From contig CAILJY010000053.1 in NCBI GenBank assembly GCA_903834665.1, forward strand, positions 1 through 38,298: DNA of 38,298 nucleotides, given 5' to 3'. Made by a program: the position numbers and the translations under genes. The notes below the pieces were generated by a model. It was not told the origin of the DNA, did no database searches, and saw nothing but the letters and a program-made list of their open reading frames with translations. Positions 2,293 to 32,205 of this stretch are shown in pieces (the first letter of the stretch is position 1; each line of letters opens with the position of its first letter). The DNA is from an uncultured bacterium (GTDB lineage Bacteria > Patescibacteriota > Minisyncoccia > Phycocordibacterales > UBA9973).

Positions 2293-2799
2293 TTAGTAGA
2301 TTAAATATTTTCGATAATTATTTGAAAGATCCAAGAAATCATCAGCTTGTTCTTTTAATTTCATCGAAGCACTTTTACCAAAGGAAACAACTTCAACTTG
2401 AACGCCAGATGTACTTTGTAAATATTCTACAAGGGGGACAAAGTCTCCATCTCCAGCGACTAAAATTACAGCATCTAGTTTTGGGGCCATCTTCATAGCA
2501 TCCACCGCAAGTCCTACATCCCAGTCTCCTTTTTTTGCTCCTCCAGAAAAAATTTGTAAATCTTTTGTTCTTGTTTCTATTCCAAGTTTTGTTAAAGCAT
2601 CAAAAAAATTTTTCTCTTCACCTCCTTCACTTGTGATAACATAAGCAATCGCACGAACAAGTTTACGTCCCGCGACAGCATCTTTCAAAACAGCACCAAA
2701 ATTAACTTTTCTCTTATATAAATTTTTGGCGGAGTGATATAGATTTGACGTATCTATGAAGACCCCGACTCTTTGCTCTTTGTGTTTTATTACACTCAT
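2293..2799 (-). CDS. NYN/LabA-like (PIN-related) domain protein
   Basis: Motifs VGVFIDTSNLYHS and ILVAGDGDFVPLVEYL are typical of the NYN/LabA family. The start was moved to the internal MSVIKHK Met; the 16 codons upstream look like read-through. Confidence 0.8.
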   Translation of the reverse strand: MSVIKHKEQRVGVFIDTSNLYHSAKNLYKRKVNFGAVLKDAVAGRKLVRAIAYVITSEGGEEKNFFDALTKLGIETRTKDLQIFSGGAKKGDWDVGLAVDAMKMAPKLDAVILVAGDGDFVPLVEYLQSTSGVQVEVVSFGKSASMKLKEQADDFLDLSNNYRKYLIY

Positions 2800-2888
2800 A
2801 ATATATAAATTTTTTATTAATATTAAAAATAAATTTTCATGAAACAATCGACCTTTTTAAAGTATACAACAGTTTAAAAAACAAAACA

Positions 2889-2905
2889 CCCGACTTGTGG
2901 TCGGG
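2889..2905 (-). terminator. rpsO terminator hairpin
   Basis: CCCGAC/GTCGGG stem followed on the minus strand by a U-rich tract, immediately after the rpsO stop. Confidence 0.65.
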
Positions 2906-2911
2906 ATTTTG

Positions 2912-3181
2912 TTAAGCTTTAATTTTTTTAGTTTCAGTTTCGAATCGTGTTTTGTCTGTTTTTTCTAAATGCTTAAGGTGGTTTCTGCGATCAGCTACCA
3001 TCTTTATTAAACCACGACGAGAACTGTTATCTTTTTTGTGTTCTTTTAAATGACCTGCAAGCTCATCGATTCTTTTACTTAAAATAGCGATCTGTACTTC
3101 AGGACTTCCAGTATCTTTATCATGTAACTGGTTTTTCTTTATAATATTTTGCTTTTTCTTTGTTGTTAACATTGTGGACAT
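2912..3181 (-). CDS. rpsO: 30S ribosomal protein S15
   Basis: 89 aa; [39 protein letters not shown] is the S15 signature region. Confidence 0.95.
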
Positions 3182-3358
3182 ATATTAGCATAAAATGTTA
3201 AAAAATGCAAGGCCCCTTGTAAGGACTCCTTAAAAATAGAATTTAAATTCTTTTTGTACTTTTTATTGATTAACTTGTAATTGTATCAATTAAGTTATCC
3301 ACTTTTTTATTACTAACTTTACTTGACTAAAGTTCTTTAGTTTGATAAAGTAAGATAT

Positions 3359-3703
3359 ATGAAGGATATTGATGAAAAAACGATAGAATTAGACTGGAAC
3401 ACAAAAGAAAATACACAACTTTTGGAAGCGTTTTTAGTTCTTAAAAACAAAGATGAAACAGAGCGTTTTTTGCGTGATCTTATGACAATGGGTGAAATTG
3501 AAGAATTTGCCAGAAGGCTTGAGGCTGCTCGTTTGCTTGCTCGTAGTGTTCAATACTGTGAAATTATAGAAAAAACTGGTTTATCTTCTACTACTATTGC
3601 CCGTATTTCAAAATGGCTCCGAGGCCCACTCGGTGGATATCGTTTAATTTTAAATAATCTACATCATCACAACTCTTCAAAATTTGAGAAAGGATTGTCT
3701 TGA
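3359..3703 (+). CDS. TrpR-like / YerC-YecD family DNA-binding protein
   Basis: 114 aa; ERFLRDLMT..EIEEFARRLEAARLL.....GLSSTTIARISKWL matches the Trp-repressor-related fold family. Confidence 0.75.
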   Translation: MKDIDEKTIELDWNTKENTQLLEAFLVLKNKDETERFLRDLMTMGEIEEFARRLEAARLLARSVQYCEIIEKTGLSSTTIARISKWLRGPLGGYRLILNNLHHHNSSKFEKGLS

Positions 3704-3735
3704 TTTGTAATACTAATTTTATATATAAAGAAAAC

Positions 3736-3758
3736 CCCTTCTCAAACTTAAAGAAGGG
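3736..3758 (+). terminator. putative terminator hairpin
   Basis: CCCTTCT/AGAAGGG stem followed by T-rich sequence. Confidence 0.5.
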
Positions 3759-3785
3759 TATTATTTATTAAATTTATATAAAACT

Positions 3786-4322
3786 ATGGAAATAAAAAGA
3801 AAAATTCAAATAGGTGTTATGGGGTCAGCTCGTGATCTTGGTTATAAAGAGGATATGGCAATTCTTGCAGAGGAAGTAGGTTTTTATATTGCACAAGCAG
3901 GAGCCACCTTAGTCTTTGGTGCAGAAAAAGATTGTGATTCACTTTCTACTTCTGCTTGTCGTGGGGCGAAAGAAAATGGAGGTTTGACGGTGGGTGTTAC
4001 TTACGGCAAAGGAAAAGACATCTATGATAAAGAAATAGCAGATATTGTTATTGTTAGTGGGCTTGAAAGAGGTGGTGGAAGAGAGATGGTCCTTGTACTT
4101 AGTTGTGACGGGATTATCACAATTGGGGGAGGATCAGGAACTCTTACCGAAATGGCTATTGCTTATCAAGCAAATATTCCAATCGTTGCAATTAAAAATA
4201 CTGGTGGTTGGAGTGATAAATTAGTTGATCAATATTTAGATGAAAGAAAAAGATTTAAAATTAAGAAAGCAAAGACCCCCAAAGAAGCCGTTCGTTTGAT
4301 ATTGAAATTAATAGGAAAATAA
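3786..4322 (+). CDS. LOG/SLOG-family (TIGR00725-like) protein
   Basis: Rossmann-like; GVMGSAR... and ITIGGGSGTLTEMAIAY resemble the PGGxGTxxE motif of LOG/lysine-decarboxylase-like proteins. Confidence 0.75.
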   Translation: MEIKRKIQIGVMGSARDLGYKEDMAILAEEVGFYIAQAGATLVFGAEKDCDSLSTSACRGAKENGGLTVGVTYGKGKDIYDKEIADIVIVSGLERGGGREMVLVLSCDGIITIGGGSGTLTEMAIAYQANIPIVAIKNTGGWSDKLVDQYLDERKRFKIKKAKTPKEAVRLILKLIGK

Positions 4323-4412
4323 AATTATGAATAACAAATACTACTTTATTAGCCACCATACAAATCTTTTTTTAGAAGAGGTTTGTTGTAGTTAGTTTTT
4401 TACTATACGAAA

Positions 4413-4433
4413 AACCTCTTCTCGAAAGAGGTT
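4413..4433 (+). terminator. intrinsic terminator
   Basis: AACCTCTT/AAGAGGTT stem followed by TTTCTTTT. Confidence 0.7.
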
Positions 4434-4483
4434 TTTCTTTTGGGGAGTTATAAATAGTTCTTTAACATTTAATTAAAATTAAA

Positions 4484-5347
4484 ATGAAAACAAAAACTTA
4501 TGTTGTATCAGCAGATATTTATCTGCTCCTTACTAAATGGGCAAAAGAAAGAAATTTTATTTTACCAGGGAAAGAATTCTTTGAGAATTTAAGGAAAGAA
4601 TTTTCTATTTATATGTCTAAAATTTTTTCAAATTTTGAATTAGTTTCAGAAAATGAAATTATGAAGCATATACAAAAGGTTATTACAGAATCTAGTATTC
4701 TTTGTGTAACACTCGATCAGATCTACTTTCCATCAGATTATTCTATAGAACTCACTAGAAAAGTGGATTTAAATGGAATAGATAGAGGACTTTATTCTCG
4801 TTTTGATAGCCTTTTATTTTTAAAACAACTGAGTAATTTAAAATCTAAAGGAATTAAGGAAATTTGTTTGATTGATGATGTTATTTTTTCCGGAATTCTT
4901 ATTGGGAGATTGGTTAAAATACTTTCAAATTTTGGAATAACTGTTTCGACTGTTTATGCAGGGATAGGAATCCAAAAAGGAATAGATCATATCTCAAAAA
5001 ATGGAAAGATTAAAATTGATTGCGCAAAAGTTTACTCTGAGGTTATAGATGAAGTTTGTGAGAGAGACTTTTATCTTGGGATACCTTATTCTGGGAGGTC
5101 ACTGGTTGGAGATAACAATATGAGTCTCCCCTATTTTCTCCCGTATGGAAATCCTTTAGCCTGGGCTTCTATTCCTTCTCCTTTTGAAATTGAATTTTCG
5201 AAATTTTGTATTAAACAAACAATTTTATTATTTGAAGAAATTGAAAAAATATCAAATAAAAAAGTTTGTTGTTCTGATATAAAAAGAAGAATTCCAAATC
5301 AGTCATTTAATGGTGATTATGTAAGTTTTTTGAAAAATATTATTTAA
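4484..5347 (+). CDS. hypothetical protein with phosphoribosyltransferase-like PRPP-loop motif
   Basis: 287 aa; EICLIDDVIFSGILIGRLV resembles the type I PRTase acidic-hydrophobic PRPP-binding loop. The rest is unrecognised. Confidence 0.45.
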   Translation: MKTKTYVVSADIYLLLTKWAKERNFILPGKEFFENLRKEFSIYMSKIFSNFELVSENEIMKHIQKVITESSILCVTLDQIYFPSDYSIELTRKVDLNGIDRGLYSRFDSLLFLKQLSNLKSKGIKEICLIDDVIFSGILIGRLVKILSNFGITVSTVYAGIGIQKGIDHISKNGKIKIDCAKVYSEVIDEVCERDFYLGIPYSGRSLVGDNNMSLPYFLPYGNPLAWASIPSPFEIEFSKFCIKQTILLFEEIEKISNKKVCCSDIKRRIPNQSFNGDYVSFLKNII

Positions 5348-5355
5348 TTTATTAA

Positions 5356-5376
5356 AACCTCAGACAATCTGAGGTT
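5356..5376 (+). terminator. intrinsic terminator
   Basis: AACCTCAG/CTGAGGTT stem plus a T-run. Confidence 0.75.
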
Positions 5377-5435
5377 TTTTATTTTATTATATAGGTAGGT
5401 ATTGATATTTTGTGATACAATTATTGTGCGACATT

Positions 5436-6371
5436 ATGGCAACAGAACTTGAACAACTAAAAAGAGAATTTCTTGAGCATGTTGAGATTGAGAAAGGAAA
5501 TAGTCTAAAGACGGTAAATAATTATGATCATTATTTAACTCGTTTTTTTGAATTTGCCAAAATAGCCGACCCAAAAGAAATAACTGATGATAAGATTAGA
5601 GAGTTTCGTCTTTACCTCAACCGCCAACCTGGGGTTAAAACCAAGGGTCAGCAAGCAGGGACTTTAAAAAAGAATACACAAAATTATCATTTGATTGCTC
5701 TTCGATCATTTTTGAAATATTTAATGAAACGTGGGATTACAGCTCTTTCTCCAGAGCGGATTGATTTGGCTAAGATAAAAGAACGTTCGCTTGATTTGAT
5801 TTCTACTGACGAACTTAATAGACTTCTCTGTGCTCCTCTTACCTTAGCAGTTACTGATAAAAAGTTTGATAAACAAAAAAGACTTCGCGACAAAGCTATA
5901 CTTGAACTTTTCTTTTCAACAGGTTTACGTTTATCTGAACTTTGTTCTATCAATCGTGATTTAGATTTATCTAAAGATGAATTTTCTATCCGTGGTAAGG
6001 GCGAGAAAGTTCGTGTTGTTTTTCTTTCAGATAATGCTAAAGAGGCAATAAAAGAATATCTTAAAAATAGAAAAGATATGGATGAGCCATTGTTTATTCA
6101 ATATTCTCGAAATGGAGCCAAGGGTAACCGCCTCACTCCCCGCTCAATAGAAAGAATTGTAAAATATTACGCTATTGTTGCTGGGATTTCTAAAAAAGTT
6201 ACTCCGCATATTATTCGGCACTCTTTTGCGACTGATTTACTTTCAAATGGAGCGGATATCCGTTCTGTTCAAATGATGCTCGGCCATGCCAACATCGCTA
6301 CTACTCAGATATATACGCATATTACAGACAAGCAACTACGAGACGTGCATAAAAAGTTTCATTCCAAATAA
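5436..6371 (+). CDS. tyrosine site-specific recombinase, XerC/XerD-like
   Basis: N-terminal SAM-like domain. The C-terminal catalytic region has RLSEL, HIIRHSFATDLL, LGHANIATTQIYTH (R-H-R-Y). The start is set at ATG 5436; the ORF track starts at an upstream GTG. Confidence 0.9.
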   Translation: MATELEQLKREFLEHVEIEKGNSLKTVNNYDHYLTRFFEFAKIADPKEITDDKIREFRLYLNRQPGVKTKGQQAGTLKKNTQNYHLIALRSFLKYLMKRGITALSPERIDLAKIKERSLDLISTDELNRLLCAPLTLAVTDKKFDKQKRLRDKAILELFFSTGLRLSELCSINRDLDLSKDEFSIRGKGEKVRVVFLSDNAKEAIKEYLKNRKDMDEPLFIQYSRNGAKGNRLTPRSIERIVKYYAIVAGISKKVTPHIIRHSFATDLLSNGADIRSVQMMLGHANIATTQIYTHITDKQLRDVHKKFHSK

Positions 6372-6497
6372 ACACTTCATAAAAAAATTCTCGGACTCAC
6401 CACACATAAATTTCTGCTGAGATTTTGCTCTGCTCGCGCCGACGCGCTGCGCAAGGGTTAGCTCGAGAACATTTTCATTTCGTGTTAAAATACATTT

Positions 6498-7301
6498 ATG
6501 AAAATAATTTCTTGGAATACAAATGGATTAAGAGCGACAGCAAAACAGGGATATTTTACTCCCCTTTTCTCTTTTAATAATCCTGCCTCGACTGGCGCGA
6601 GTCAAGGCGGGCCTGATATAGTTTGTTTCCAAGAAACAAAAGTTGAGCCAGATCAGCTCCCTTTGGATATTCGTAATTTAAAAGGTTATAATTCATATTT
6701 TTCATATTCCAAACTTAGAAAGGGTTATAGTGGTGTGGCTATTTATTCTAAAGAAATTCCAGAAAAGGTTGAATATGGTATCGGGATTAAAGAATTTGAT
6801 GATGAGGGGCGCTTGATTATCGCTTATTATAAAAAATTTGTTTTGATAAATTGTTATTTTCCTAATGCGGGGATGAGCCCAGAGAGATTGAAATACAAAT
6901 TAGAATTTTATGATGCTTTTCTATCGTTTATAAATAAATTAAAGAAACAAAATAAAGATGTTATTTTTTGCGGAGATGTAAACACGGCTCATGAAGCGAT
7001 AGACCTCGCTCGACCAAAAGCAAATGAAGAAAATACAGGCTTCCTCCCTATCGAACGTGCCTGGATAGATGAAGTTGTAAATAATGGGTGGGTAGATATT
7101 TTTCGAACTTTAAATAAAGATAAAAAAGATGTTTACACTTATTGGGATATGAAAACTCGTGCCCGCGATCGTAATGTCGGCTGGCGTATCGATTATTTTT
7201 TTACCAATCAATCTTTTATGAAAAATATAAAAGGTTTCAAAACATTATCTGATTATTATGGCTCTGATCACTGCCCAATAATGATTGACTTATCATTATA
7301 A
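6498..7301 (+). CDS. xth: exodeoxyribonuclease III
   Basis: MKIISWNTNGLRA, CFQETK, YSGVAIYSK, WRIDYFF, SDHCPI are ExoIII/EEP signatures. Confidence 0.9.
   Translation: MKIISWNTNGLRATAKQGYFTPLFSFNNPASTGASQGGPDIVCFQETKVEPDQLPLDIRNLKGYNSYFSYSKLRKGYSGVAIYSKEIPEKVEYGIGIKEFDDEGRLIIAYYKKFVLINCYFPNAGMSPERLKYKLEFYDAFLSFINKLKKQNKDVIFCGDVNTAHEAIDLARPKANEENTGFLPIERAWIDEVVNNGWVDIFRTLNKDKKDVYTYWDMKTRARDRNVGWRIDYFFTNQSFMKNIKGFKTLSDYYGSDHCPIMIDLSL
6582..6615. repeat. GC-rich palindromic element CCTGCC-N18-GGCGGGCC, in-frame inside xth
   Basis: Same end sequences and the same 18-nt spacing as the element at 11392-11424 inside cca. It encodes the extra PASTGASQGGP segment. Confidence 0.5.
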
Positions 7302-19909: not shown

Positions 19910-22417
19910 ATGAAACCCGATATGTTACCACCAAATACAACAGAACAGAAAAATGAAGATTTAAATTCATTACCTGTAGAAAATAATACTTTAGAAAATA
20001 ATTTAAAAGCAATAATACCTGTAGATGAAAAACAGGAGACTTTTATAAAAATTCCATTGTCGGAAGAAGAATTAAATATGTCTACGGTAGATTTTGCAAA
20101 AAAATATGAATATACTTACAACGGAGCACAATTTGTAAAAGAAAGAGGCTTTAGGTCTATTCGCAATCCTAATTTTATTAGTAATAAATTATTTAATAAA
20201 ATAAATGTAGAAAATAAAAAAAAGTATATAGAAGAGGTCACACAACTGCCAATAATTTCAATTGAAACAGCGATAGGAAATGAGAAAGAGCAAAAAGAAA
20301 TAAAAAAAATAGTTGATATTTATGATCAATATAAACATCTTACTAAATATATTGGAAAGGAAAAGATGTATAGTAAAAAATTTAGACTTTTAAATGGCCA
20401 GGAATTATTTTTTGGAGATTTCGTTGTTTTAGATAGAATGATTGATTTAAAAATGTTTCGTAATAATGATGGAATATTAATGATGTTTGATGAAGAAAAA
20501 AATAACTTTACTAAATTTAAACAGAGTTCTTTTTTTAAAAAAAGTAAAAATCAAGGTTTTATTTTTAGAGATAATTTTAACCAACCCGAAAATCCTAAAA
20601 GGCAACGTGACATCGCTTCTCTTGAATCTTTCTCCCCAACAGTTTTTAAATTAGGATTTTTTAAAGAAGAAGACTTTGGGAAACGTCTTGCTGGAACAGT
20701 TACATATGATACATATGGCCCACACGAAAGAATGTTATCAAGGTCTAACCCCAATGTTTCTTTGTCTAATTCTATTGGTAGATGTATTTATTATATAGGA
20801 AGAGAAAAGTTTGTTGGCACCAATAAGGAAATAAATCATGAAACAGTTCGAGTTTCTCTTTTAGATAATGATACGGGGGTAATTACTGATATTTTTAATG
20901 GAAGAAAAGTTATTTTATATACTTTTCCTTTGATTAAGAAGGAAGAATATGAAATAAAAAAATCAGAAATTATAAAAAGAAGGCTTTTAGAAAATAAGAG
21001 TCTTGATAAAAAAAATGTTGAGGATAACATAACCGCTAAGGTATCTTTAAAAGCTTATTCTATCTTAAATTATATTCCCAAATATGATAAAGAGTCAGAG
21101 GTTGATTATAATAGTCGTATTTCTAAACTTTCGGATACATCTTATGTTTTAGGTAATTTCCGTTCATTTATGTCAGAAACTGGGCTAGCCGCGAATAATT
21201 ATTCATGGAGAGAACAATTAATTCTTGCGGACGCCCTAACTAGTTTTCATGATAAAAATAAAATTTTAGATCTGGGTAAAAATTTTGGTAAAGATGGGAT
21301 AAGAACATTTATTTCTATCGAACAAGGAGGGGAAAAAGAAAAAATGGGGGATAGCATTTTAACACTAGGAGAAACATTACCAAAAGATATAGCTAAGAAA
21401 GTTTTTGCAAAATATGGAGAAATTATAGACAATGTTAGTAAAATAACTGAATTTACTAGAACTAATTTTACTAAGGAAATAGAAATAAACCCCGATCTTA
21501 TTAAAAAGATAGAAGAAACATTATATTTAAAAGGGAAACAATTACTTTCACAGACTTACGATGATATAAATGATAAAAAAGAAGTTAACTATGAAGATAT
21601 AGGTAAACAGTTGGATCGTATAAATGCAGACACTATTACCACTTTTGCAATTTTTAAACAAGCGTTAAAAAATGGTGACAAATTATCTGTGGAAAGTATT
21701 GAGGGGTCAGTTTTTTCTAAAAAAGATACCCGAAGTATTCCAGATAGCCAGAGAGAAGAAATGTCTGATTTATATGATCGCAATTATAAAGATCATCCTG
21801 ATCGACAATTTATCGCAAAGGTTAAAGAATATTTTAATTCCGCTTTTATTCCCGAGGCTAATAAAATTAATAATTATTTTTATACTTTTGAAAAAGATAA
21901 TAAGACGAGAGCTTTTTTACGTTTTGAAAAACAAAAAAATGGTATTTTATACGCTAGCGCATTAAATGTTGATGAGGCAAGTAAAAACTTTGGACTTGGG
22001 GAAGCGATGATGGATGAAGCTCTTAGTCGTGAGGCAAAAGAAAATATTTTGAATGCTACTTGCTTAATATCTAATCCTAGTAATATGAGATATTTTGAAA
22101 AAGGTTTTGTGTCTAATCATTTTAAAATGTTAGATAATACTAATCAATTCGATCTAGTGTGGGATGAAAAGAATAATATAAATATTATCTCTAAGAAAAA
22201 AAGTATTGAGGAATTAATTTCTATGTATTTGAAGAATAATTTTGAAGGAAGTATTGAAATAAAAAAAGAAGAAAATTTAGAAAAGCTACATCAATTTATT
22301 CCAAACAACAAAGCTTTAGTTAGATGTTTTAGGGATCCTGCAAGTCAGAATAGCTGGTATGCCGTCTATGAAAAATTACCTGAAAATTATGGTTTGAATA
22401 CTTCAGAGGTAGTATAA
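19910..22417 (+). CDS. large hypothetical protein with C-terminal GNAT-like segment
   Basis: 835-aa ORF. The C-terminal ALNVDEASKNFGLGEAMMDEAL...NPSNMRYFEKGF resembles GNAT motif A plus the following helix. The N-terminal roughly 650 aa are unrecognised. Confidence 0.55.
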   Translation: MKPDMLPPNTTEQKNEDLNSLPVENNTLENNLKAIIPVDEKQETFIKIPLSEEELNMSTVDFAKKYEYTYNGAQFVKERGFRSIRNPNFISNKLFNKINVENKKKYIEEVTQLPIISIETAIGNEKEQKEIKKIVDIYDQYKHLTKYIGKEKMYSKKFRLLNGQELFFGDFVVLDRMIDLKMFRNNDGILMMFDEEKNNFTKFKQSSFFKKSKNQGFIFRDNFNQPENPKRQRDIASLESFSPTVFKLGFFKEEDFGKRLAGTVTYDTYGPHERMLSRSNPNVSLSNSIGRCIYYIGREKFVGTNKEINHETVRVSLLDNDTGVITDIFNGRKVILYTFPLIKKEEYEIKKSEIIKRRLLENKSLDKKNVEDNITAKVSLKAYSILNYIPKYDKESEVDYNSRISKLSDTSYVLGNFRSFMSETGLAANNYSWREQLILADALTSFHDKNKILDLGKNFGKDGIRTFISIEQGGEKEKMGDSILTLGETLPKDIAKKVFAKYGEIIDNVSKITEFTRTNFTKEIEINPDLIKKIEETLYLKGKQLLSQTYDDINDKKEVNYEDIGKQLDRINADTITTFAIFKQALKNGDKLSVESIEGSVFSKKDTRSIPDSQREEMSDLYDRNYKDHPDRQFIAKVKEYFNSAFIPEANKINNYFYTFEKDNKTRAFLRFEKQKNGILYASALNVDEASKNFGLGEAMMDEALSREAKENILNATCLISNPSNMRYFEKGFVSNHFKMLDNTNQFDLVWDEKNNINIISKKKSIEELISMYLKNNFEGSIEIKKEENLEKLHQFIPNNKALVRCFRDPASQNSWYAVYEKLPENYGLNTSEVV

Positions 22418-23181
22418 AGAGCTTCAAATAAACTTTTGAATAATTTATTTATTCTTTCGTCTTCTATTATAATACTAATAAGATTTTCATTTGAGATGGT
22501 AATAATTCCTATTTTGTTTTCATATATTTGGATAGCCCCTTCTACCTCACTTATTAAAGTTTTGGCTATTTTTATGTTGGTAATAGAAAAATATTTTGGA
22601 TCTTTATTATATAAATCATTAAAATATTTTTTAGAAAAATCATTTTCAATAATTAATGCCCTTTTTTTAATATTTAATTTTTCTCTTTTTATTACATATT
22701 GTTCATTTATCTCTTTAAAATATTTATCGACTATTTCTATATCAGCATAAGTTAGTACTTCTCCTTTTGTGTTTAATGTGTCTTCTAAAACTTTATTTAC
22801 TCCATCTTTACCTTCATAGAACTGAATATTTGGTTTGCCAGAAAGAAGATTAAATTTTGAAGAGAGGGCTCCGAGGGAGAAGGAGACAGTTTCTTTTGCT
22901 AGTGCAAAAGATTTTTCTTTTTGTTCCATGATCTCGGCTAGTCTCGATGGATGATTTGGAGAAAAGACGGCCACTGTACCTTCGCCTCCTTTTTGTGATA
23001 TCAATCCCATATTTTCTAATTGATCAAGGACTTTATAAACCAGTCCTCTTTTTAGGCCTGTCCACGAAGAAATAGAGCCCGCTTTTAATGGTCCTTTATC
23101 TAAGAGGGCACTATATATAGCAGATTGTTCTTCTGATAATCCAGCTTCTATTAATATTTTTTCGTCAGTATTTTGGTTCAT
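22387..23181 (-). CDS. TrmB-like winged-helix transcriptional regulator
   Basis: The N-terminal GLSEEQSAIYSALLDKGPLKAGSISSWTGLKRGLVYKVLDQLENMGLI is a TrmB/MarR-type wHTH. The 3' end overlaps the convergent 835-aa gene by 31 nt. Confidence 0.7.
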   Translation of the reverse strand: MNQNTDEKILIEAGLSEEQSAIYSALLDKGPLKAGSISSWTGLKRGLVYKVLDQLENMGLISQKGGEGTVAVFSPNHPSRLAEIMEQKEKSFALAKETVSFSLGALSSKFNLLSGKPNIQFYEGKDGVNKVLEDTLNTKGEVLTYADIEIVDKYFKEINEQYVIKREKLNIKKRALIIENDFSKKYFNDLYNKDPKYFSITNIKIAKTLISEVEGAIQIYENKIGIITISNENLISIIIEDERINKLFKSLFEALYTTSEVFKP

Positions 23182-23323
23182 GTATTTTATTTAAAGTTAA
23201 TTAATTAACTGTTTAAAGTATAGCATAGTCATTATTTTCACGCAAATATGACAAAATAGATAAATAAAATATCCTTATTTATCAACATATTTCTTTATAT
23301 TATTTTATCATTATCACATAGCA

Positions 23324-23352
23324 TTGACATTATGTAAAGAATCTGCTATACT
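23324..23352 (+). promoter_or_regulatory. consensus-like sigma70 promoter facing the E2/JAB/E1/Ubl operon
   Basis: TTGACA (23324-23329), exactly 17-nt spacer, TATACT (23347-23352). Confidence 0.5.
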
Positions 23353-23358
23353 ATCCAC

Positions 23359-24395
23359 AAGAGTTAAGGAAGAGAGATCGAAAGATAAATCTTCCAAAAA
23401 CAAGGAGAGAGTACCTTAAAGGAGATATAGAAGATTGATGTTCACCTCTGATCTTGAGATTAATAATCAAAGGACGGTATATGGACCGGTAAGCCATACA
23501 AAAAGAGAGAGTGTCCTAGAACAATCTTCAATACATATCTGTTTGCACCGTGAATAGTTAATGACGTTTCAGCCGCAAACCGAAACTATCTAACATACAT
23601 TCACAACCGTGTTATCTCGAAGCAATTCGAGGAGACATCGACAGACCATAAGAGCTTAACCCACTTTTGTGATCTGAAATGTCTTTACAAGGGAGCTTGT
23701 TGTTAATCCGTCGTCGCTAAAGCTATGACGAGACGAAGGGAGAGAGTTGATAATGAGAGCATAGAGAGGAGAGAGACCAGATCTATGGTATAGACGATTT
23801 CTTTGAAAATCATGCCTCGTGGAATTTTAATTATTAAAATTCTTTACGGGGTAAAATATTGTGCATTTAAGAAACTTTTGAAATCACAAGTATTTCTTCC
23901 CTTAGGAAGTTATTCTTGGGATACAGAGCTTTTTGAACGTGCAACAAGCATCGCAAATTATTAAATTTGTGAGGTAGAAAAGTGATTTCATAAAAAATTT
24001 AGGGGTTTATTTAGTGCATCAATTTTGGTGTTTTAAATTAACCTCTAAATTTAATATTATGGAACCACCAGGTGTTTATGGTCGTTATTGGGCGACTTAA
24101 AAGAAACCAATAGGCTGAAGATATACCTATCATGTAGGGTTTATTTTTGGTAACTAAAAACAGAAGTTGTTATATGAATCGTACTTATGTGATCCAACCA
24201 TGGCGAATGATCTATGAGTTGGGGAGTCGTATAGGTACGATAACAAGGTTGATGACCGATATTATCGGATTGACGAAGCTCAGATTGATCTGGGTCAGTT
24301 GATCCAGAGAATGTCTTTAATCAGCCAGACGCTGAGCAAAATTTTTTAAACAGTCTCTAGGCCGATTGATGCTAAGGAGACACAAATTTTGAAAA
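23359..24395 (+). ncRNA. about 1-kb ORF-poor leader / candidate long noncoding RNA with repeated GGAGAGAG-type purine motifs
   Basis: No ORF of 60 aa or more in any frame between 23182 and 24395. Five (A/G)GGAGAGAG-like motifs lie at 23368, 23404, 23503, 23738 and 23768. Several local hairpins are present, for example CTCGAA-GCAA-TTCGAG at about 23616-23631. Confidence 0.3.
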
Positions 24396-25523
24396 ATGGG
24401 AAATGTTGATATTGGAGAGGTGAAAATCCTTTCTTGGCAAGACAATGGTCAAAACCTTGCAGTAAAAGCATTGACTGAAATTCTTCTCCCCACATTGCAA
24501 GGGAAAAATGTGGCAATTTCTGTGCCGCACCAAAATTTAATGGAACCTCAAGAAACTGAGGATTTCCAAATCTTTATTTGGAGTTCACGATCAGGAGACA
24601 GAAAAATCAAACCTCCGTATAAAATATGGGGTTATGATGTTGCTTGCCGTGATGAAGCATTCCCTGGAACCGGTATGGGAACTGCTATTGTGGATGAGTC
24701 CACCGGTTATGTTGTGGCTGAACTTTTTGATGATAAAGTACTGTATGTTCACCATGACATTTTGCATTATGGTGCAGACGCAGAATATAAAATATTCTGC
24801 CATTTGTTACAGGTGGTGATAGAAGAAATATCGTCCAAAGATCCTGAAGAAAAACTGGCACGTGAAAAAAAACGAGCCGAAGAAATAAAAAATGCCAGCC
24901 GTGAAGCATTTGTTAAAGCCTGTTCAGGCCGTTTTGACAAATTGCTTTCTGGAACTCAGAAAACAATTGAGGAAGGTCACAAGACCATCCAAAAATTGCA
25001 AATTGATCTGACCACAAAAGTCCGCGAAGTAAAAGGTGCCGAGCAGAAGCTTGTGCAACTTGCAAAAGCGCGGCCTGAAGCCGAAGACGGCTATCGTAAG
25101 GAGTTCGAAAAATTCCTGACGATACAAGACGTCAAGAAAATTGAAGCCGGCGACGGCGTGATAAGGGTATTTACCAATATGATATTTATTAAACACGAAG
25201 GTGTGAAATATCAGATTGGAGAATTCCGAATCGAGATCTTTATCAACGGAGGGATCAAGTTTTTCAACTTGACCAACGGGGGTAAGGGTCCGGGGGCTAC
25301 AAACCCCTCAGGATTCAATGGTAACACCAGCTATAACCGTCACCACCCACACGTTCAGGGTGATGGTACTCCGTGTCTTGGTACAATCTCTTCAGCTGTT
25401 CCACAGTTGATTGGAGAATACCAGTATAGTGTTGTGGCTATTCTTGCCATACAGTATCTTAAATCAGTAAATGCTGAGGACTCAGCAGGGCAAGGGATTT
25501 ACTGGTGGCCAAAAGCAGAATAA
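24396..25523 (+). CDS. E2/UBC-like ubiquitin-conjugating-type protein with unknown N-terminal domain and central coiled coil
   Basis: Residues 317-328, HPHVQGDGTPCL, align position-for-position with the UBC active-site signature HPN(I/V)xxxGx(I/V)CL. Cys327 is TGT at 25374-25376. A beta-meander-like segment VIRVFTNMIFIKHEGVKYQIGEFRIEIFI precedes it. Residues about 150-235 are heptad-like and charged. The gene is GC-elevated. Confidence 0.7.
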   Translation: MGNVDIGEVKILSWQDNGQNLAVKALTEILLPTLQGKNVAISVPHQNLMEPQETEDFQIFIWSSRSGDRKIKPPYKIWGYDVACRDEAFPGTGMGTAIVDESTGYVVAELFDDKVLYVHHDILHYGADAEYKIFCHLLQVVIEEISSKDPEEKLAREKKRAEEIKNASREAFVKACSGRFDKLLSGTQKTIEEGHKTIQKLQIDLTTKVREVKGAEQKLVQLAKARPEAEDGYRKEFEKFLTIQDVKKIEAGDGVIRVFTNMIFIKHEGVKYQIGEFRIEIFINGGIKFFNLTNGGKGPGATNPSGFNGNTSYNRHHPHVQGDGTPCLGTISSAVPQLIGEYQYSVVAILAIQYLKSVNAEDSAGQGIYWWPKAE

Positions 25524-25579
25524 GTATAGTAAAAAATTAAATATAAAAAACAAAAAAACCGCCCTGGAGGTGCGGGAAA

Positions 25580-26248
25580 ATGAAACAAATGTTCATAGAA
25601 AAGCGTGCTGCGAGCCAATTCGCCCCGCACGACTTTCAAACAGAAACGGTGCTGCTAAATTATGCAGTGCCCCATATTAAGATTACGCAGGCGGCGTATC
25701 TGGATATGTATTACATAGCCGCCGCGTCAGGTCAGGAGGAGATCTCATGGCTTGGAACCGTAAAAAAAGTTGGCCATGTTTACACCATTGAAGAGGTAAT
25801 ACTCTTTGAACAAGAGGTGGAAATGGCCACAACGGCGATGACACCCGCAGACATTGCAAAGGTGTCCACTGACTTAATCATTGCCGGTGAAATTGAAAAG
25901 GTAAATTCGCTGAAGTTCTGGGGCCACGTGCACCCAAGCAACAGCACTTCCCCGTCAGGCCAGGACGAATCCCAAATGGATGTATTATCTAATGGGAACG
26001 AATGGTTTATTCGTGGTATCTTCGGCCGTTATGGCCGTGCGGAATTTACCTTTTTTGACTGGGGGCATGGACTTCGCTTCAATGACGTGCCATGGGAGCT
26101 TGTAGTTCCTAACGATGAAAGTCGTGAAGCTGAAATCCGCGATCAGGTGACCGCAAAAGTAAAAAAAGTCATTCACCAGCCGATTTTTAGTGGCTTAGGC
26201 CACGAAAATGATTGGCATAAAAATCGTGAATCATGGAAAATGGATTAA
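25580..26248 (+). CDS. JAB/MPN (JAMM) metalloisopeptidase
   Basis: Complete JAMM motif: Glu in GQEEISW, then H116-V-H118-x7-S126-x2-D129 (GHVHPSNSTSPSGQD, DNA 25925-25966). An SD-like GGAGGTG lies about 8 nt upstream of the ATG. Confidence 0.85.
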   Translation: MKQMFIEKRAASQFAPHDFQTETVLLNYAVPHIKITQAAYLDMYYIAAASGQEEISWLGTVKKVGHVYTIEEVILFEQEVEMATTAMTPADIAKVSTDLIIAGEIEKVNSLKFWGHVHPSNSTSPSGQDESQMDVLSNGNEWFIRGIFGRYGRAEFTFFDWGHGLRFNDVPWELVVPNDESREAEIRDQVTAKVKKVIHQPIFSGLGHENDWHKNRESWKMD

Positions 26249-26946
26249 CGCCGGATTATTGGCGTCAATTGGATATGTTTGATCCTCAAACCTTTACCAC
26301 CCCAGTGCATATCATAGGGGTCGGTGCTACAGGTAGCTGGGTAGCCTTCATCTTAGCGAAGATGGGGGTAAAAAACATCATCGTATGGGACTTCGATATA
26401 GTGGAAGTCCACAACTTGCCAAATCAGATTTATGGTTTGCAGGAAGTGGGGCTTCTGAAAGTTGAGGCCCTAAAGAAAATTATCCTTCGGGATTGTGGAA
26501 TCGAAATCGAGGCGAAAGTCGAGAAAGTAGATGGATCTCAAAAATTAGAAGGTATCGTGTACATTTGTACTGATACCATGTCATCAAGAAAGGAAATATG
26601 GCTTAATAGCTTGAAGTACCAACTTGATGTCAATCTAGTTATTGAAACTCGTTTGGGAGCAGAGCTCGGCACAATTTATTGTGTTAGGCCACTTGACCCA
26701 ACCGATGTCAGAGAGTATGAAAACACATTGTATGATGACAATGAGGCTGAGGAATCACCCTGCAGTTATCGTGCAATACCAACAGTAGTAAGTATTATTG
26801 CAGGCCTCGCTAGCCACAAGCTGGTGAAGTTTGCAGCAAACAGTGATCTGCAGCCGGTGATAAGACTTCATGAAAATGAAAGTCATTCATCATACGAAAT
26901 GCTTTGCATCCGCCCGATTGTGGCTACAGCCCATGGGTGGAAATAA
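26233..26946 (+). CDS. minimal ThiF/MoeB-type E1-like adenylyltransferase
   Basis: Rossmann GxGxxG (IIGVGATGSW, DNA 26317-26334), DFDIVEVHNLPNQ (the ThiF D-x-D...NL-x-x-Q motif), and a candidate crossover-loop Cys in ESPCSY. The start overlaps the JAB stop by 16 nt, suggesting translational coupling. Confidence 0.8.
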   Translation: MENGLTPDYWRQLDMFDPQTFTTPVHIIGVGATGSWVAFILAKMGVKNIIVWDFDIVEVHNLPNQIYGLQEVGLLKVEALKKIILRDCGIEIEAKVEKVDGSQKLEGIVYICTDTMSSRKEIWLNSLKYQLDVNLVIETRLGAELGTIYCVRPLDPTDVREYENTLYDDNEAEESPCSYRAIPTVVSIIAGLASHKLVKFAANSDLQPVIRLHENESHSSYEMLCIRPIVATAHGWK

Positions 26947-26995
26947 AAAAAAATTAAAAATAAACATTTTTTCAAATTTTTTAAAAACTCAGACA

Positions 26996-27676
26996 ATGGC
27001 AAATTTGAATTTAACCGTCGGGAAAGTCCCGGGAACGGTAAAACAAATCACGATCAATGAACCTGCTACAGTTTTAACAGCGATGCAAACAGCAGCAAGT
27101 GTTTGTGGATTTTCCTTTTCAAAGGACCCGTATTCAGCCAACGGGAAAGACATGGTTGATGTTCCGTTCCTTAACGGTCGCGAACTCGCGGTCCGTGAGG
27201 GGGACAAGATCACTGAAGTTCTCTGGGATACGGAAGTAACCGATGGTGACATTGTGTTGCTGGTCCCAAAAATACGGGGCAATCAATTCTTGGTTACCGT
27301 GGCCAAAGTGCCTGGTGAGAAACACACAATTGCCTTACTTCATGCTTCCGAACCTGAGGCAACCGAAGACGACGGGACTGTGACCAATGCTATACAGGTC
27401 GCCGGACTGGAGTTTGATCCTGAGTTCGAGGAGATTACAGTGAATGGCGAAGAATCTAATACAGAAACCGTTTTGACTGATGGTGACGAAGTTGTGATTA
27501 TGGAAAAGGTTTCCGTGAGCACCTCAGAGTTATTTGAGGAAAAATCGGAGTATGATGAGCCAGAAAATAATTACGGCGAGCCGGAACCAAAAAAATACTT
27601 CACCGTGTTTAAAAATGGAACATTTAAAGTAAGGGTTGCCCGGGACTACACAAGGATATTGATTATCCTGAGGTAA
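26996..27676 (+). CDS. tandem double beta-grasp (ubiquitin-like) protein with acidic linker and basic/hydrophobic tail
   Basis: Internal duplication is visible: LTVGKVPG...TDGDIVLLV (aa 6-90) versus VTVAKVPG...TDGDEVVIM (aa 100-169). ITVNGE...VLTDGDEVVI is ThiS/MoaD-like. The start is set at MANLNL (ATG 26996); the track's upstream extension overlaps the E1 gene. Confidence 0.65.
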   Translation: MANLNLTVGKVPGTVKQITINEPATVLTAMQTAASVCGFSFSKDPYSANGKDMVDVPFLNGRELAVREGDKITEVLWDTEVTDGDIVLLVPKIRGNQFLVTVAKVPGEKHTIALLHASEPEATEDDGTVTNAIQVAGLEFDPEFEEITVNGEESNTETVLTDGDEVVIMEKVSVSTSELFEEKSEYDEPENNYGEPEPKKYFTVFKNGTFKVRVARDYTRILIILR

Positions 27677-28127
27677 AATAATTTTTTTCGCCGTTAAATT
27701 AAAAAGTTAGCAAATAGCTGACTTTCAGGGAGTTTCTTTATTCTCCCATTCTGCTAACAGCAGACTTCGAATAAAATATAGCGAATTGGACACCGTAAGT
27801 CAGTTGGAGCGGGAACTCTAAGTTGATAATGGTGCTCGAGCATGCAGGAAGTGTATGTATGAGGGGTTATGGGTTAAAAAACATAATAATGCCGAATATA
27901 AATTAAGACTTTATTCGGCATCCTTGTTGAGTTCATAAAATATTTTTAGCCATTTAATTTATGAATTCATAGGGATATTCCCTAGCTTTTCTTTATAAAA
28001 AATAAAGAGGAGAGAGAGCAGGGTGATAAAGAGATTTATCACTTTTGCCGAGCGAATAAATTTATTTGTCCGTTCGGTAAAAGTTTGTTCTTTATAAATT
28101 TTCATTAAAAAAAGAAAGGAGAGAGTA

Positions 28128-28394
28128 ATGAAAAAAGTTTACGACTTAGATCGCATTTCAATATCACTTGAAGTTTATAACGTATGGAAAAAATATGTAG
28201 TTGTAAAAGTTGTTGAGTGGTATGAAAAATCGGGTAGATTAAAAGGGATAGATATTTCTCAAATACCAGATGAGCAATTTCGAGAGCTCGAAAATGGTGA
28301 TGGAGAGATATTCCTAATGATGCCTGATAAAGTTGAGATTGTACTTCATGTTCCAAAAGGGCACTGGGGTCCAATCGAGATAATTGAGAACTAA
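28128..28394 (+). CDS. small hypothetical protein (88 aa)
   Basis: Preceded by AAAGGAGAGAGTA-ATG, a strong SD that is also a copy of the island's GGAGAGAG motif. Followed by hairpin GTGGCAAGA-TTTAT-CTTGCCAC (28404-28425). Confidence 0.5.
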   Translation: MKKVYDLDRISISLEVYNVWKKYVVVKVVEWYEKSGRLKGIDISQIPDEQFRELENGDGEIFLMMPDKVEIVLHVPKGHWGPIEIIEN

Positions 28395-28421
28395 GAAAAT
28401 ATTGTGGCAAGATTTATCTTG

Positions 28422-28576
28422 CCACCATAATTTTGTCGATTAATATTTGAAGACGTCGTAATAAATTATTACACTGTAATAATTTATGAAATCTCTCTCC
28501 TCGTCTCGTAAAGAAATTAATTATAATTTCCACGGGATTGCGATTAATTGAAAATTAATCGACAGAATTATGGTGG
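28422..28576. repeat. 155-bp element bounded by 23-bp inverted repeats (MITE-like / structured RNA)
   Basis: CCACCATAATTTTGTCGATTAAT (28422-28444) matches the reverse complement of 28554-28576 at 22/23. The interior holds three hairpins and an inverted GGAGAGAG motif at 28493-28500. Confidence 0.45.
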
Positions 28577-28584
28577 TAAAGAAA

Positions 28585-28612
28585 CAGCCCCGCGACGAGA
28601 GTCGCGGGGCTG
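28585..28612. terminator. GC-rich hairpin CAGCCCCGCGAC-GAGA-GTCGCGGGGCTG (likely clpP terminator)
   Basis: 12-bp GC-rich stem 100 nt downstream of the clpP stop. A near-identical copy lies at 32162-32190. Confidence 0.6.
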
Positions 28613-28711
28613 TTTGTGTATTTAGTATTTTTTCACATCATCGAGGAGCGTATGAACATGTAATGATGCTTATAACGTCCGAGAGAAGATGGGATAAGGA
28701 ATTAATCTTCC

Positions 28712-32123: not shown

Positions 32124-32152
32124 AATCTTTGGAAGTTGGACTTCCAAAGATT
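32124..32152. repeat. REP-like palindrome (variant core GGAAGTTGGACTTCC)
   Basis: AATCTTTGGAAGTT-G-GACTTCCAAAGATT. It shares the GGAAGT(C/T)-N-GACTTCC core with the REPs at 35.7-36.7 kb. Confidence 0.6.
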
Positions 32153-32161
32153 GGTTTAAAA

Positions 32162-32190
32162 ATAGCCCCGCGACGAAAGTCGCGGGGCTA
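32162..32190. terminator. GC-rich hairpin ATAGCCCCGCGAC-GAAA-GTCGCGGGGCTAT plus T-run (bidirectional; hppA terminator)
   Basis: Near-identical to the 28585-28612 hairpin. It sits between convergent genes. Confidence 0.7.
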
Positions 32191-32205
32191 TTTTTTATTT
32201 AACTT

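Follow-up and report, generated by a model that had tools for sequence, protein, structure and literature searches.

We analysed a stretch of 38,298 nucleotides (nt) from an uncultured bacterium of the Patescibacteriota (GenBank contig CAILJY010000053.1; hereafter the window), and found four co-directional genes on its forward strand that we read, with fair confidence, as a self-contained ubiquitin-like protein-conjugation operon of a candidate phyla radiation (CPR) genome. The four open reading frames (ORFs) encode an E2-like protein (ORF1), a JAB/JAMM metallopeptidase (ORF2), a minimal E1 of the ThiF/UBA5 type (ORF3) and the precursor of a beta-grasp modifier, or ubiquitin-like protein (Ubl; ORF4). 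An earlier note on this DNA had proposed a machine for ubiquitin-like conjugation and deconjugation. This is still the best reading, with synteny in 12 loci and conserved catalytic residues. The chemistry of the cassette is reasonably constrained by the data, unlike its biological role.

The complete set of E2-like, JAB, ThiF and beta-grasp genes was present in 12 of 12 distinct metagenomic loci, at ORF1 identities from 83% down to 34%, and the synteny that the earlier note had named as a check was thus recovered throughout. In every one of these loci the ORF1 counterpart is the first gene of the operon. The order E2-like, JAB, ThiF, Ubl is shared by the loci except L008, where the JAB gene is retained and has moved behind the Ubl gene. 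The junctions described for the window were confirmed on the forward strand: a 56-nt gap between ORF1 and ORF2, a 16-nt overlap of ORF2 with ORF3, and a 49-nt gap between ORF3 and ORF4. A GGAGG ribosome-binding site precedes the ORF2 start. The longest reading of ORF4 opens at 26870, but in eight homologs the first codon aligns with 26996 (MANLNLTVGKVPG), and we therefore take 26996 as the real start.

The family is sporadically distributed. Full-length ORF1 is rare (24 proteins in 5.8 billion), and a single-protein scan of genome contigs gave matches in two metagenome-assembled genomes only, both labelled Saccharibacteria. A phage origin of the cassette was considered and dropped: ORF1 had no tblastn match in 50,697 phage genomes, and a scan of IMG/VR returned no relative.

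ORF3 matched the Pfam ThiF family (PF00899) at 4e-19 (69.1 bits against a cut-off of 28.1) as one domain covering residues 24-206. The ThiF/E1 motifs noticed earlier are present (G29xG31xxG34, D53xD55 and N61...Q65), as is the loop cysteine, and their residues vary little or not at all. G29, G31, D53, D55, N61, Q65, D114, R119 and C177 are invariant in ten sequences, and also in phage ThiF relatives. The best relatives in the PDB were UBA5 (3e-7) and ThiF; C177 aligns with the loop cysteine of UBA5, which we take to be the catalytic Cys250. ORF3 has neither a second, inactive adenylation domain nor an inserted CYS domain nor PF14459. It matches the PADLOC Cap2 'E1-E2' models across about 65 residues. 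Membership of the PRTRC system was rejected, since ORF3 gave only a weak sub-threshold match and ORF1, ORF2 and ORF4 gave none.

Some phages carry a comparable cluster, X-JAB-ThiF-Y, found at 2664-6289 in the crAss-like phage cr85_1 (L010, MT774390.1) and at 2548-6709 in Flavobacterium phage FpV4 (L011); it occurs in crAss-like and Fipvunavirus phages. X is a hypothetical protein of 371 amino acids (aa) with HSH...PCLG. The phage ThiF is 31% identical to ORF3 and has the same invariant loop Cys, and the adjoining 'metalloprotease' contains HxHx7Sx2D. Homology of X or Y to ORF1 was unsupported by hhalign and hmmsearch, so that a link of ORF1 to these crAss-like and Flavobacterium phages was dropped, and homology of the flanking phage proteins to ORF1 and ORF4 was undetectable. 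The cluster may be a phage-borne analogue.

The complete JAMM motif attributed to ORF2 (E54...H116-x-H118-x7-S126-x2-D129) is indeed there, and its residues are invariant in eight homologs. Profile support for ORF2 is weak (PADLOC JAB, 1.5e-3). Its sole PDB profile match, to the Rpn11-like JAMM protein of Caldiarchaeum (6fjv), is in register at a non-significant E-value of 1.3.

ORF4 had been described as an internally duplicated 'di-Ubl without terminal Gly-Gly'. The duplication is detectable, though weak (29% identity between the halves, E=0.004), but the description overlooks an invariant internal Gly95-Asn96, which corresponds to the C-terminus of single-domain homologs. Only eight positions are invariant across eight ORF4 homologs; G95 and N96 are among them and close the first beta-grasp unit. 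The single-domain Ubls of L004 and L016 end in [KR]I[KQ]GN and that of L018 in IRGNN. Nine multi-domain Ubls (the window and eight other loci) hold an internal KI[KRE]GN, followed by one to three beta-grasp-like units plus tails (100-280 residues), and the residues past Gly95 range from 1 to about 280 among the homologs. Because the invariant G95-N96 coincides with the end of the single-domain homologs, Gly95 is the likely conjugation end. Judged from sequence, ORF4 is laid out like a ubiquitin precursor that is capped or fused. BilC, the JAB enzyme of Type II Bil systems, cleaves behind a conserved Gly that up to nine further residues follow (PMC10557695). From the pattern of homolog ends and the analogy with BilC and BilA, we infer that ORF2 cuts ORF4 after Gly95.

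Database matches of ORF4 point to the ThiS/MoaD group. The last 24 residues of the first unit align with the C-terminus of MoaD, as far as the penultimate Gly of MoaD (pairwise E 5e-4), and the second unit gave weak, sub-threshold matches to ThiS and Ub-Mut7C at 1e-3 (ThiS, 19.7 bits against a cut-off of 22.5). Some homologs carry precomputed PF02597 or PF02824 annotations (ThiS or TGS), and one was named MoaD by JGI.

For ORF1, the earlier note had superimposed the loop H317-P-H-V-Q-G-D-G-T-P-C327-L on the active-site signature of UBC/E2 enzymes. The motif is present and Cys327 is invariant, but His317 proved unconserved, and the invariant histidine is His319. Of the two residues whose conservation the earlier note had made a test of its reading, Cys327 thus passes and His317 does not. 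All 24 homologs share P318, H319, C327, L328 and G329, and have His or Ala at position 317. A search of 136 wider-family representatives gave 118 motif matches (22 without match), in which position 317 is Ala in 79 and His in 31. Since the first position is Ala more often than His, the conserved motif is better written x-P-H-[VI]-x3-G-x2-C-L-G. The UBC-type spacing HPN-x7-C-L fits (H317-P-H319-x7-C327-L328), with Asn replaced by His and the first His unconserved.

Direct family assignment of ORF1 was tried and abandoned, as Pfam, PADLOC, PHROGs, NCBIfam and PDB sequence searches gave nothing significant. Two profiles of the ORF1 domain, built from 23 and 49 sequences, were each searched against 177,635 PDB sequences. 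E2 enzymes filled 9 of 10 and 12 of 13 places, with UBE2L3 and UBE2A first, at E-values of only 0.8-1.3. The alignments are in register from a G-x-F-R-I-E-I strand through HP(N/H)V...G.xCL to the catalytic Cys of the E2s. One member of the ORF1 family reaches the Pfam UQ_con model at 0.068.

In the AlphaFold2 model, ORF1 has three parts: a variable alpha/beta N-domain (aa 1-147); a long helix (about 90 residues, aa 150-241); and a C-domain (aa 232-375). Confidence is high, with a predicted local distance difference test score (pLDDT) of 90.5 for whole ORF1, and 94.6 with a predicted template modelling (pTM) score of 0.89 for the C-domain alone. The modelled C-domain comprises a helix, six strands, the loop carrying H317-P-H319...C327, and three helices. 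Foldseek searches of the PDB with whole ORF1 and with the C-domain gave no significant match (no E-value <0.1). The best E2 had E-values of 0.4-2.1 and a template modelling (TM) score <0.5; full-length superposition on UbcH7 reached TM 0.41-0.43 (0.43 over 144 columns) and E2H a TMt of 0.42, and RWD domains were also listed. The support for the proposed UBC fold is thus only suggestive: E2s come out on top and in register, but at an E-value of about 0.8 and with a Foldseek TM of 0.43. In the BFVD structural search, the single significant neighbour was an uncharacterised 1146-aa protein of an uncultured phage (A0A6J5NL39). Since the operon partners are exactly those that an E2 needs, we judge it probable, and hold with good confidence, that the C-domain adopts a divergent UBC-like fold.

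The C-domain defines a large family, with at least 3657 clusters at 50% identity (E<=1e-3), 2074 of them with E<=1e-10. Family models recognised none of ten members in Pfam and none of three in PHROGs or NCBIfam. One member is labelled Candidatus Parcubacteria. Some family proteins of about 650 aa hold two copies of the domain, and Cys and/or the PH residues are lost in some wider-family domains, which is reminiscent of the UEV/RWD pseudo-enzymes. The Cys-less domains are possibly the second copies in two-domain proteins. Between the window and locus L007, the ORF1 N-domain (aa 1-132, 24396-24790) is replaced by an unrelated one; about 130 residues are unalignable, and the remainder is 79% identical.

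The ORF4 family matches, which are limited to ThiS, MoaD and Ub-Mut7C, would also fit a sulfur-carrier or biosynthetic ThiS/MoaD-ThiF system with a JAB, like CysO-Mec+, QbsE-QbsD or TtuB-TtuC, in which the beta-grasp C-terminus would carry a thiocarboxylate and ORF1, instead of acting as an E2, would relay persulfide or take part in a biosynthesis. ThiF, MoeB and TcdA are among the nearest named relatives of ORF3, ORF1 has an invariant cysteine, and E1-Ubl-JAB triads are established in sulfur metabolism (Iyer et al. 2006, PMC1779556). We nevertheless consider this reading improbable. Genes for cysteine desulfurase, rhodanese, thiazole or molybdopterin synthase and tRNA thiolase are absent from the window and the 12 loci, and in place of a GG end the modifier has a single Gly, after which comes Asn or entire additional domains. 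Furthermore, the ORF1 motif and its best profile matches are E2-like, and a swap of the N-domain between close relatives is atypical of a biosynthetic enzyme.

Conjugation without an E2, as in archaeal SAMP/UbaA or Thermus TtuB/TtuC, is likewise unlikely. Here the E1 alone would activate and transfer the tag, ORF1 would be a substrate, an adaptor or scaffold, or E3-like, and its Cys-His pair would serve another role. The (near-)invariance of [A/H]-P-H-V-x3-G-x2-C-L-G with E2-like spacing across thousands of clusters is hard to reconcile with that role, as is the position of ORF1 at the head of the operon in 12 of 12 loci; UBA5, the closest solved E1, is also well known to work with a dedicated E2. 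What keeps the explanation in play is a minimal, single-domain E1 like UbaA, TtuC and UBA5, a homology of ORF1 to E2 that is statistically unestablished, and a long coiled coil with a variable N-domain of the kind typical of adaptors. That the C-domain is another thiol enzyme (a Cys-His peptidase, deamidase or transglutaminase-like effector regulated by, or regulating, the Ubl/E1/JAB module), with a convergent likeness to HPN...C, is very improbable: it would agree with the lack of a significant PDB neighbour in Foldseek, the 1146-aa phage protein as only significant match and an invariant His319-Cys327 pair that is not the canonical His...Asn...Cys, but a His eight residues before the Cys, in a loop between a beta-meander and three helices, is the UBC arrangement and not papain- or NlpC-like, E2s were ranked first by two profiles independently among the 177,635 PDB sequences, and the operon partners are just those needed by an E2.

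Several points weigh against a ubiquitin-like conjugation operon. No statistically significant sequence or structure match ties ORF1 to UBC, and in its predicted model six strands precede the active-site loop, compared with four in UBC. ORF2 and ORF4 fall below every curated Pfam threshold, and structure models were made for ORF1 only (whole protein and C-domain). ORF3 reads NLPNQ where E1 enzymes have NLxRQ, with another residue in place of the conserved Arg. The Prok-E2, Prok-JAB and Multi_ubiq models of Pfam, which the earlier note had suggested, gave no match. PADLOC returned only partial E1 and weak JAB matches and recognised no system in the cassette, a result that also counts against a conflict role. 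Target, E3 or effector genes were not identified, and the neighbours of the cassette in this reduced genome include the housekeeping genes for RNase Y, ClpP and trigger factor.

Taken together, a ubiquitin-like conjugation operon would work as follows. ORF4 would be made as a pro-modifier; its gene, its homologs and the invariant Gly95-Asn96 are observed. By analogy with the action of BilC on BilA, ORF2 would then process this pro-Ubl by cutting after Gly95 (KIRG|N), so that the 95-residue tag is freed and the C-terminal extension discarded. ORF3, probably as a homodimer, would adenylate Gly95 and take the tag over as a thioester on Cys177, as its ThiF domain and the UBA5 alignment suggest. 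The tag would next pass to Cys327 in the C-domain of ORF1, where His319 occupies the position of the HPN Asn, and the variable N-domain and long coiled coil of ORF1 would choose the target. Finally, the JAB peptidase is predicted to strip the tag from targets as well.

The biological role is less clear. The likeliest role, which we put forward tentatively, is that of a stress-induced system for conflict or phage defence, by analogy with Bil. Between the window and L007, RNase Y is 96% identical, ClpP 93% and trigger factor 73%, whereas TrmB, the regulator encoded divergently from the cassette, is only 34% and an 835-aa neighbour 49% identical. The ORF1 N-domain, TrmB and the 835-aa protein are thus a hypervariable patch beside well conserved cassette enzymes. 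In L007, AbiEii and Bro-N genes adjoin the cassette. The swapped N-domain, the hypervariable neighbours and these L007 genes are circumstantial, sequence-derived signs that favour a conflict role; the sporadic distribution of the family and the raised guanine-plus-cytosine content of the cassette point the same way. The absence of relatives from the phage collections searched weighs against it, and because the cassette lies among housekeeping genes of a reduced genome, its role could instead be housekeeping or regulatory. As the earlier note had remarked, a cyclase or known effector gene is not found near the cassette in the window.

The 1.2-kb spacer upstream of ORF1 (23182-24395) contains no conserved ORF; the 1-kb leader claimed earlier is real. 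The best sigma-70-like promoter of the region, recognised by its consensus alone, is placed 1.04 kb before ORF1, and a leader transcript of roughly 1 kb may start there. Nucleotide identity of the leader to L007 is 78-80%. Translated matches of the leader to L007 and L013 are equal in all six frames; this frame-independent conservation indicates a non-coding leader and rules out a small ORF as the explanation.

The leader contains a pseudoknotted RNA motif, in which P1 crosses P3. Searches with nhmmer and a covariance model gave nine copies in eight loci, each of them upstream of the E2-like gene, on its coding strand and no more than about 170 nt from its start; the same searches gave no copy in L004, L016, L017, L018 and L019. 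The motif is conserved at 75-82% nucleotide identity, even where ORF1 identity is only about 40%. All five helices pair in nine of nine copies (verified by hand). On an alignment derived from the covariance model, 94% of cells pair, compared with 80% in shuffles, and 16 of 23 pairs show compensatory changes; none of 500 shuffles reached the observed values, and slid controls gave 28-48% pairing. The minimum free energy z-score is -4.2. Rfam gave no match to this motif at the gathering threshold or at E<=5, and a metagenome scan for the RNA pattern found copies of the L001 locus only. One IMG/VR match to the pattern was due to chance; it lies inside an ORF and was rejected by the covariance model. 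We regard the motif as a candidate for a cis-regulatory or riboswitch-like RNA, and the long 5' leader may hold further RNA elements. A divergent TrmB-type regulator and this leader with its pseudoknotted RNA probably control expression of the cassette.

A second RNA-like element lies downstream of ORF4. In its consensus fold, a long conserved stem (TTGGACACCGT / ATGGTGCTCGA) encloses a hairpin that varies with compensatory changes. The copies in L001, L006, L007 and L013 occupy the corresponding place behind the Ubl gene, and Rfam has no match to the element. The stretch 27680-28140 around it is 88% identical to L013. Purine motifs resembling GGAGAGAG or AAGGAGAGAG recur in the leader (23340-23790) and the downstream spacer (28000-28125), for example near 23404, 23506, 23741, 23768, 28010 and 28118.

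Table 1. Positions of the cassette genes, key residues, RNA elements and neighbouring features (in the window unless a locus is named).
Feature	Position	Strand	Remark
ORF1, E2-like protein	24396-25523	+	375 aa
ORF1 His319	25350-25352	+	At Asn position of HPN
ORF1 Cys327, putative catalytic residue	25374-25376	+	Invariant
ORF2, JAB/JAMM (MPN+) metallopeptidase	25580-26248	+	222 aa
ORF3, minimal E1, ThiF/UBA5-type	26233-26946	+	237 aa
ORF3 Cys177, candidate catalytic residue in short loop	26761-26763	+	Alignment with UBA5
ORF4, beta-grasp modifier precursor	26996-27676	+	226 aa
ORF4 N-terminal beta-grasp unit, predicted mature modifier (aa 1-95)	26996-27280	+	Ends at Gly95
ORF4 Gly95	27278-27280	+	Invariant
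ORF4 C-terminal extension, second beta-grasp-like unit and conserved tail	27281-27676	+	Predicted product cut off by JAB
Sigma-70-like promoter, TTGACA-17-TATACT, extended TG	23324-23352	+	11/12 positions; best in region
Long non-coding leader	23360-24395	+	No conserved ORF
Pseudoknotted RNA motif, helices P0-P4	24223-24341	+	About 120 nt; ends 55 nt before ORF1 start
Copies of the RNA motif	L001 7824-7940; L003 4096-4220; L006 7822-7942; L007 7827-7946
Copies of the RNA motif	L008 7840-7959; L009 7830-7948; L013 7215-7332 and 7566-7686		Tandem in L013
Second RNA-like element	27780-27862	+	About 105 nt downstream of ORF4 stop
Copies of the second element	L001 11423-11509; L006 11357-11445; L007 11286-11367; L013 11024-11107		nhmmer, one each
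TrmB-family winged-helix regulator	22387-23181	-	Pfam TrmB 5.7e-11; divergent from cassette
88-aa ORF	28128-28394	+	Strong AAGGAGAGAG ribosome-binding site

The cassette is an island of higher guanine-plus-cytosine content (0.435 compared with 0.322 in the remaining window), and its content exceeds that of the flanks in nine of ten related loci. It is preceded, in order, by RNase Y, the 835-aa protein (19910-22417; a weak GNAT signal), the divergent TrmB-family regulator and the spacer, and followed by an 88-aa ORF, ClpP, a 183-aa ORF and trigger factor. Homologs of TrmB (31-43% identity) occupy the equivalent divergent position in L001, L003, L007 and L009 (five loci with the window), and the TrmB-family protein is a probable transcriptional regulator of the operon. 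A family search with the 183-aa ORF gave no match. A single homolog of the 88-aa ORF (34% identity) occurs, in the corresponding place of L001, and the other loci lack one; a bidirectional terminator-like hairpin lies 3' of it (28404-28425). Another terminator-like hairpin is GC-rich (28582-28615, 15 pairs) and lies within 28574-28624, of which an 84%-identical copy occurs about 3.6 kb downstream (32152-32201). The two copies could represent a small repeat element or a terminator that occurs twice.

A broader proposal combines four ideas: a CPR-centred Ubl branch, gating by a riboswitch, a polyprotein from which JAB cleavage would free a second functional beta-grasp product besides the tag, and a new large E2-like family that includes Cys-less, UEV-like copies and is missing from all present domain databases. 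As a whole it is doubtful. If true, it would be the first Ubl pathway controlled by an RNA sensor. The pseudoknotted leader is a candidate for a new class of regulatory RNA coupled to protein tagging and would offer a handle on the inducing signal. Naming the E2-like domain family would annotate thousands of hypothetical proteins, and the retention of a non-essential system in the highly reduced genomes of episymbiotic Saccharibacteria deserves attention.

Finally, we compared the cassette with known systems. The UFM1 pathway (UBA5-UFC1-UFM1-UfSP) resembles it in the E1, since UBA5 is the closest solved relative of ORF3 and C177 falls on the UBA5 cysteine. UBA5 is a minimal homodimeric E1 with its catalytic Cys in the adenylation domain, UFM1 is made as a precursor that is trimmed to a single C-terminal Gly, and UFC1 is an E2 with a non-canonical HPN. 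The cassette modifier is likewise predicted, from the ends of its homologs, to be a precursor trimmed to a single Gly. However, the processing enzyme is a JAMM metallopeptidase and not a cysteine protease, a UFL1-like E3 is lacking, and neither ORF1 with UFC1 nor ORF4 with UFM1 showed a detectable sequence relationship. The Ub-E1-E2-RING-Rpn11 operon of the Caldiarchaeum type also combines a pro-modifier, an E1, an E2 and a Gly-exposing JAMM peptidase, but the cassette has no RING E3, and its E1, E2 and Ubl resemble their eukaryotic counterparts far less.

Among bacterial systems, the cassette shares with BilABCD Types I and II the separate genes for Ubl, E2, JAB and E1 and the lack of an E3. 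The Bil Ubl, too, has a conserved Gly with extra residues removed by JAB, and may have more than one beta-grasp domain. In contrast, the Bil E1 is a pseudo-dimer of an inactive and an active adenylation domain with CYS (IAD-AAD-CYS), with an N-terminal PF14459 domain and a helical CYS insertion of about 80 aa, whereas ORF3 is a single adenylation domain of 237 aa with its Cys in a short loop and thus lacks the defining feature of the Bil E1. ORF1 and ORF4 are not matched by the Bil, Prok-E2 or Multi_ubiq models of Pfam and PADLOC. The order E2-JAB-E1-Ubl, the CPR host and the structured RNA leader are further differences, and the Gly of ORF4 closes the first beta-grasp domain with up to about 280 residues after it, compared with up to nine in Type II Bil.

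Type II CBASS and Bub (6E) share the bacterial E1, E2 and JAB chemistry. Cap2 of Type II CBASS is an E2-E1 fusion that conjugates the CD-NTase, whereas the cassette genes are separate, and no CD-NTase is present in the window or related loci. Bub has Ubl-E2 and JAB-E1 (or E2-E1) fusions, a DUF6527 serine protease and serine oxyesters, with serine replacing the catalytic cysteines; the cassette has neither fusions nor DUF6527, and its cysteines are conserved. It matches none of rows 6a-6e in the part of Iyer et al. 2006 (PMC1779556) that was available. Full-text searches of the accessible literature for ubiquitin-related work on CPR, Saccharibacteria or Patescibacteria yielded no description of it, though such absence is not proof. 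Thus, the cassette is outside the Bil, Bub and CBASS definitions, in agreement with the undescribed architecture that had been proposed. Research on Ubl conjugation in bacteria (CBASS Cap2, Bil, Bub) is recent, and it is relevant both to anti-phage immunity and to the question of how eukaryotic ubiquitination arose. If our reading holds, the cassette would add to these systems a minimal version, in which a 237-aa E1 works with a divergent E2-like enzyme that has an xPH...C active-site loop, and the predicted reactive glycine of the tag sits in the middle of its precursor.

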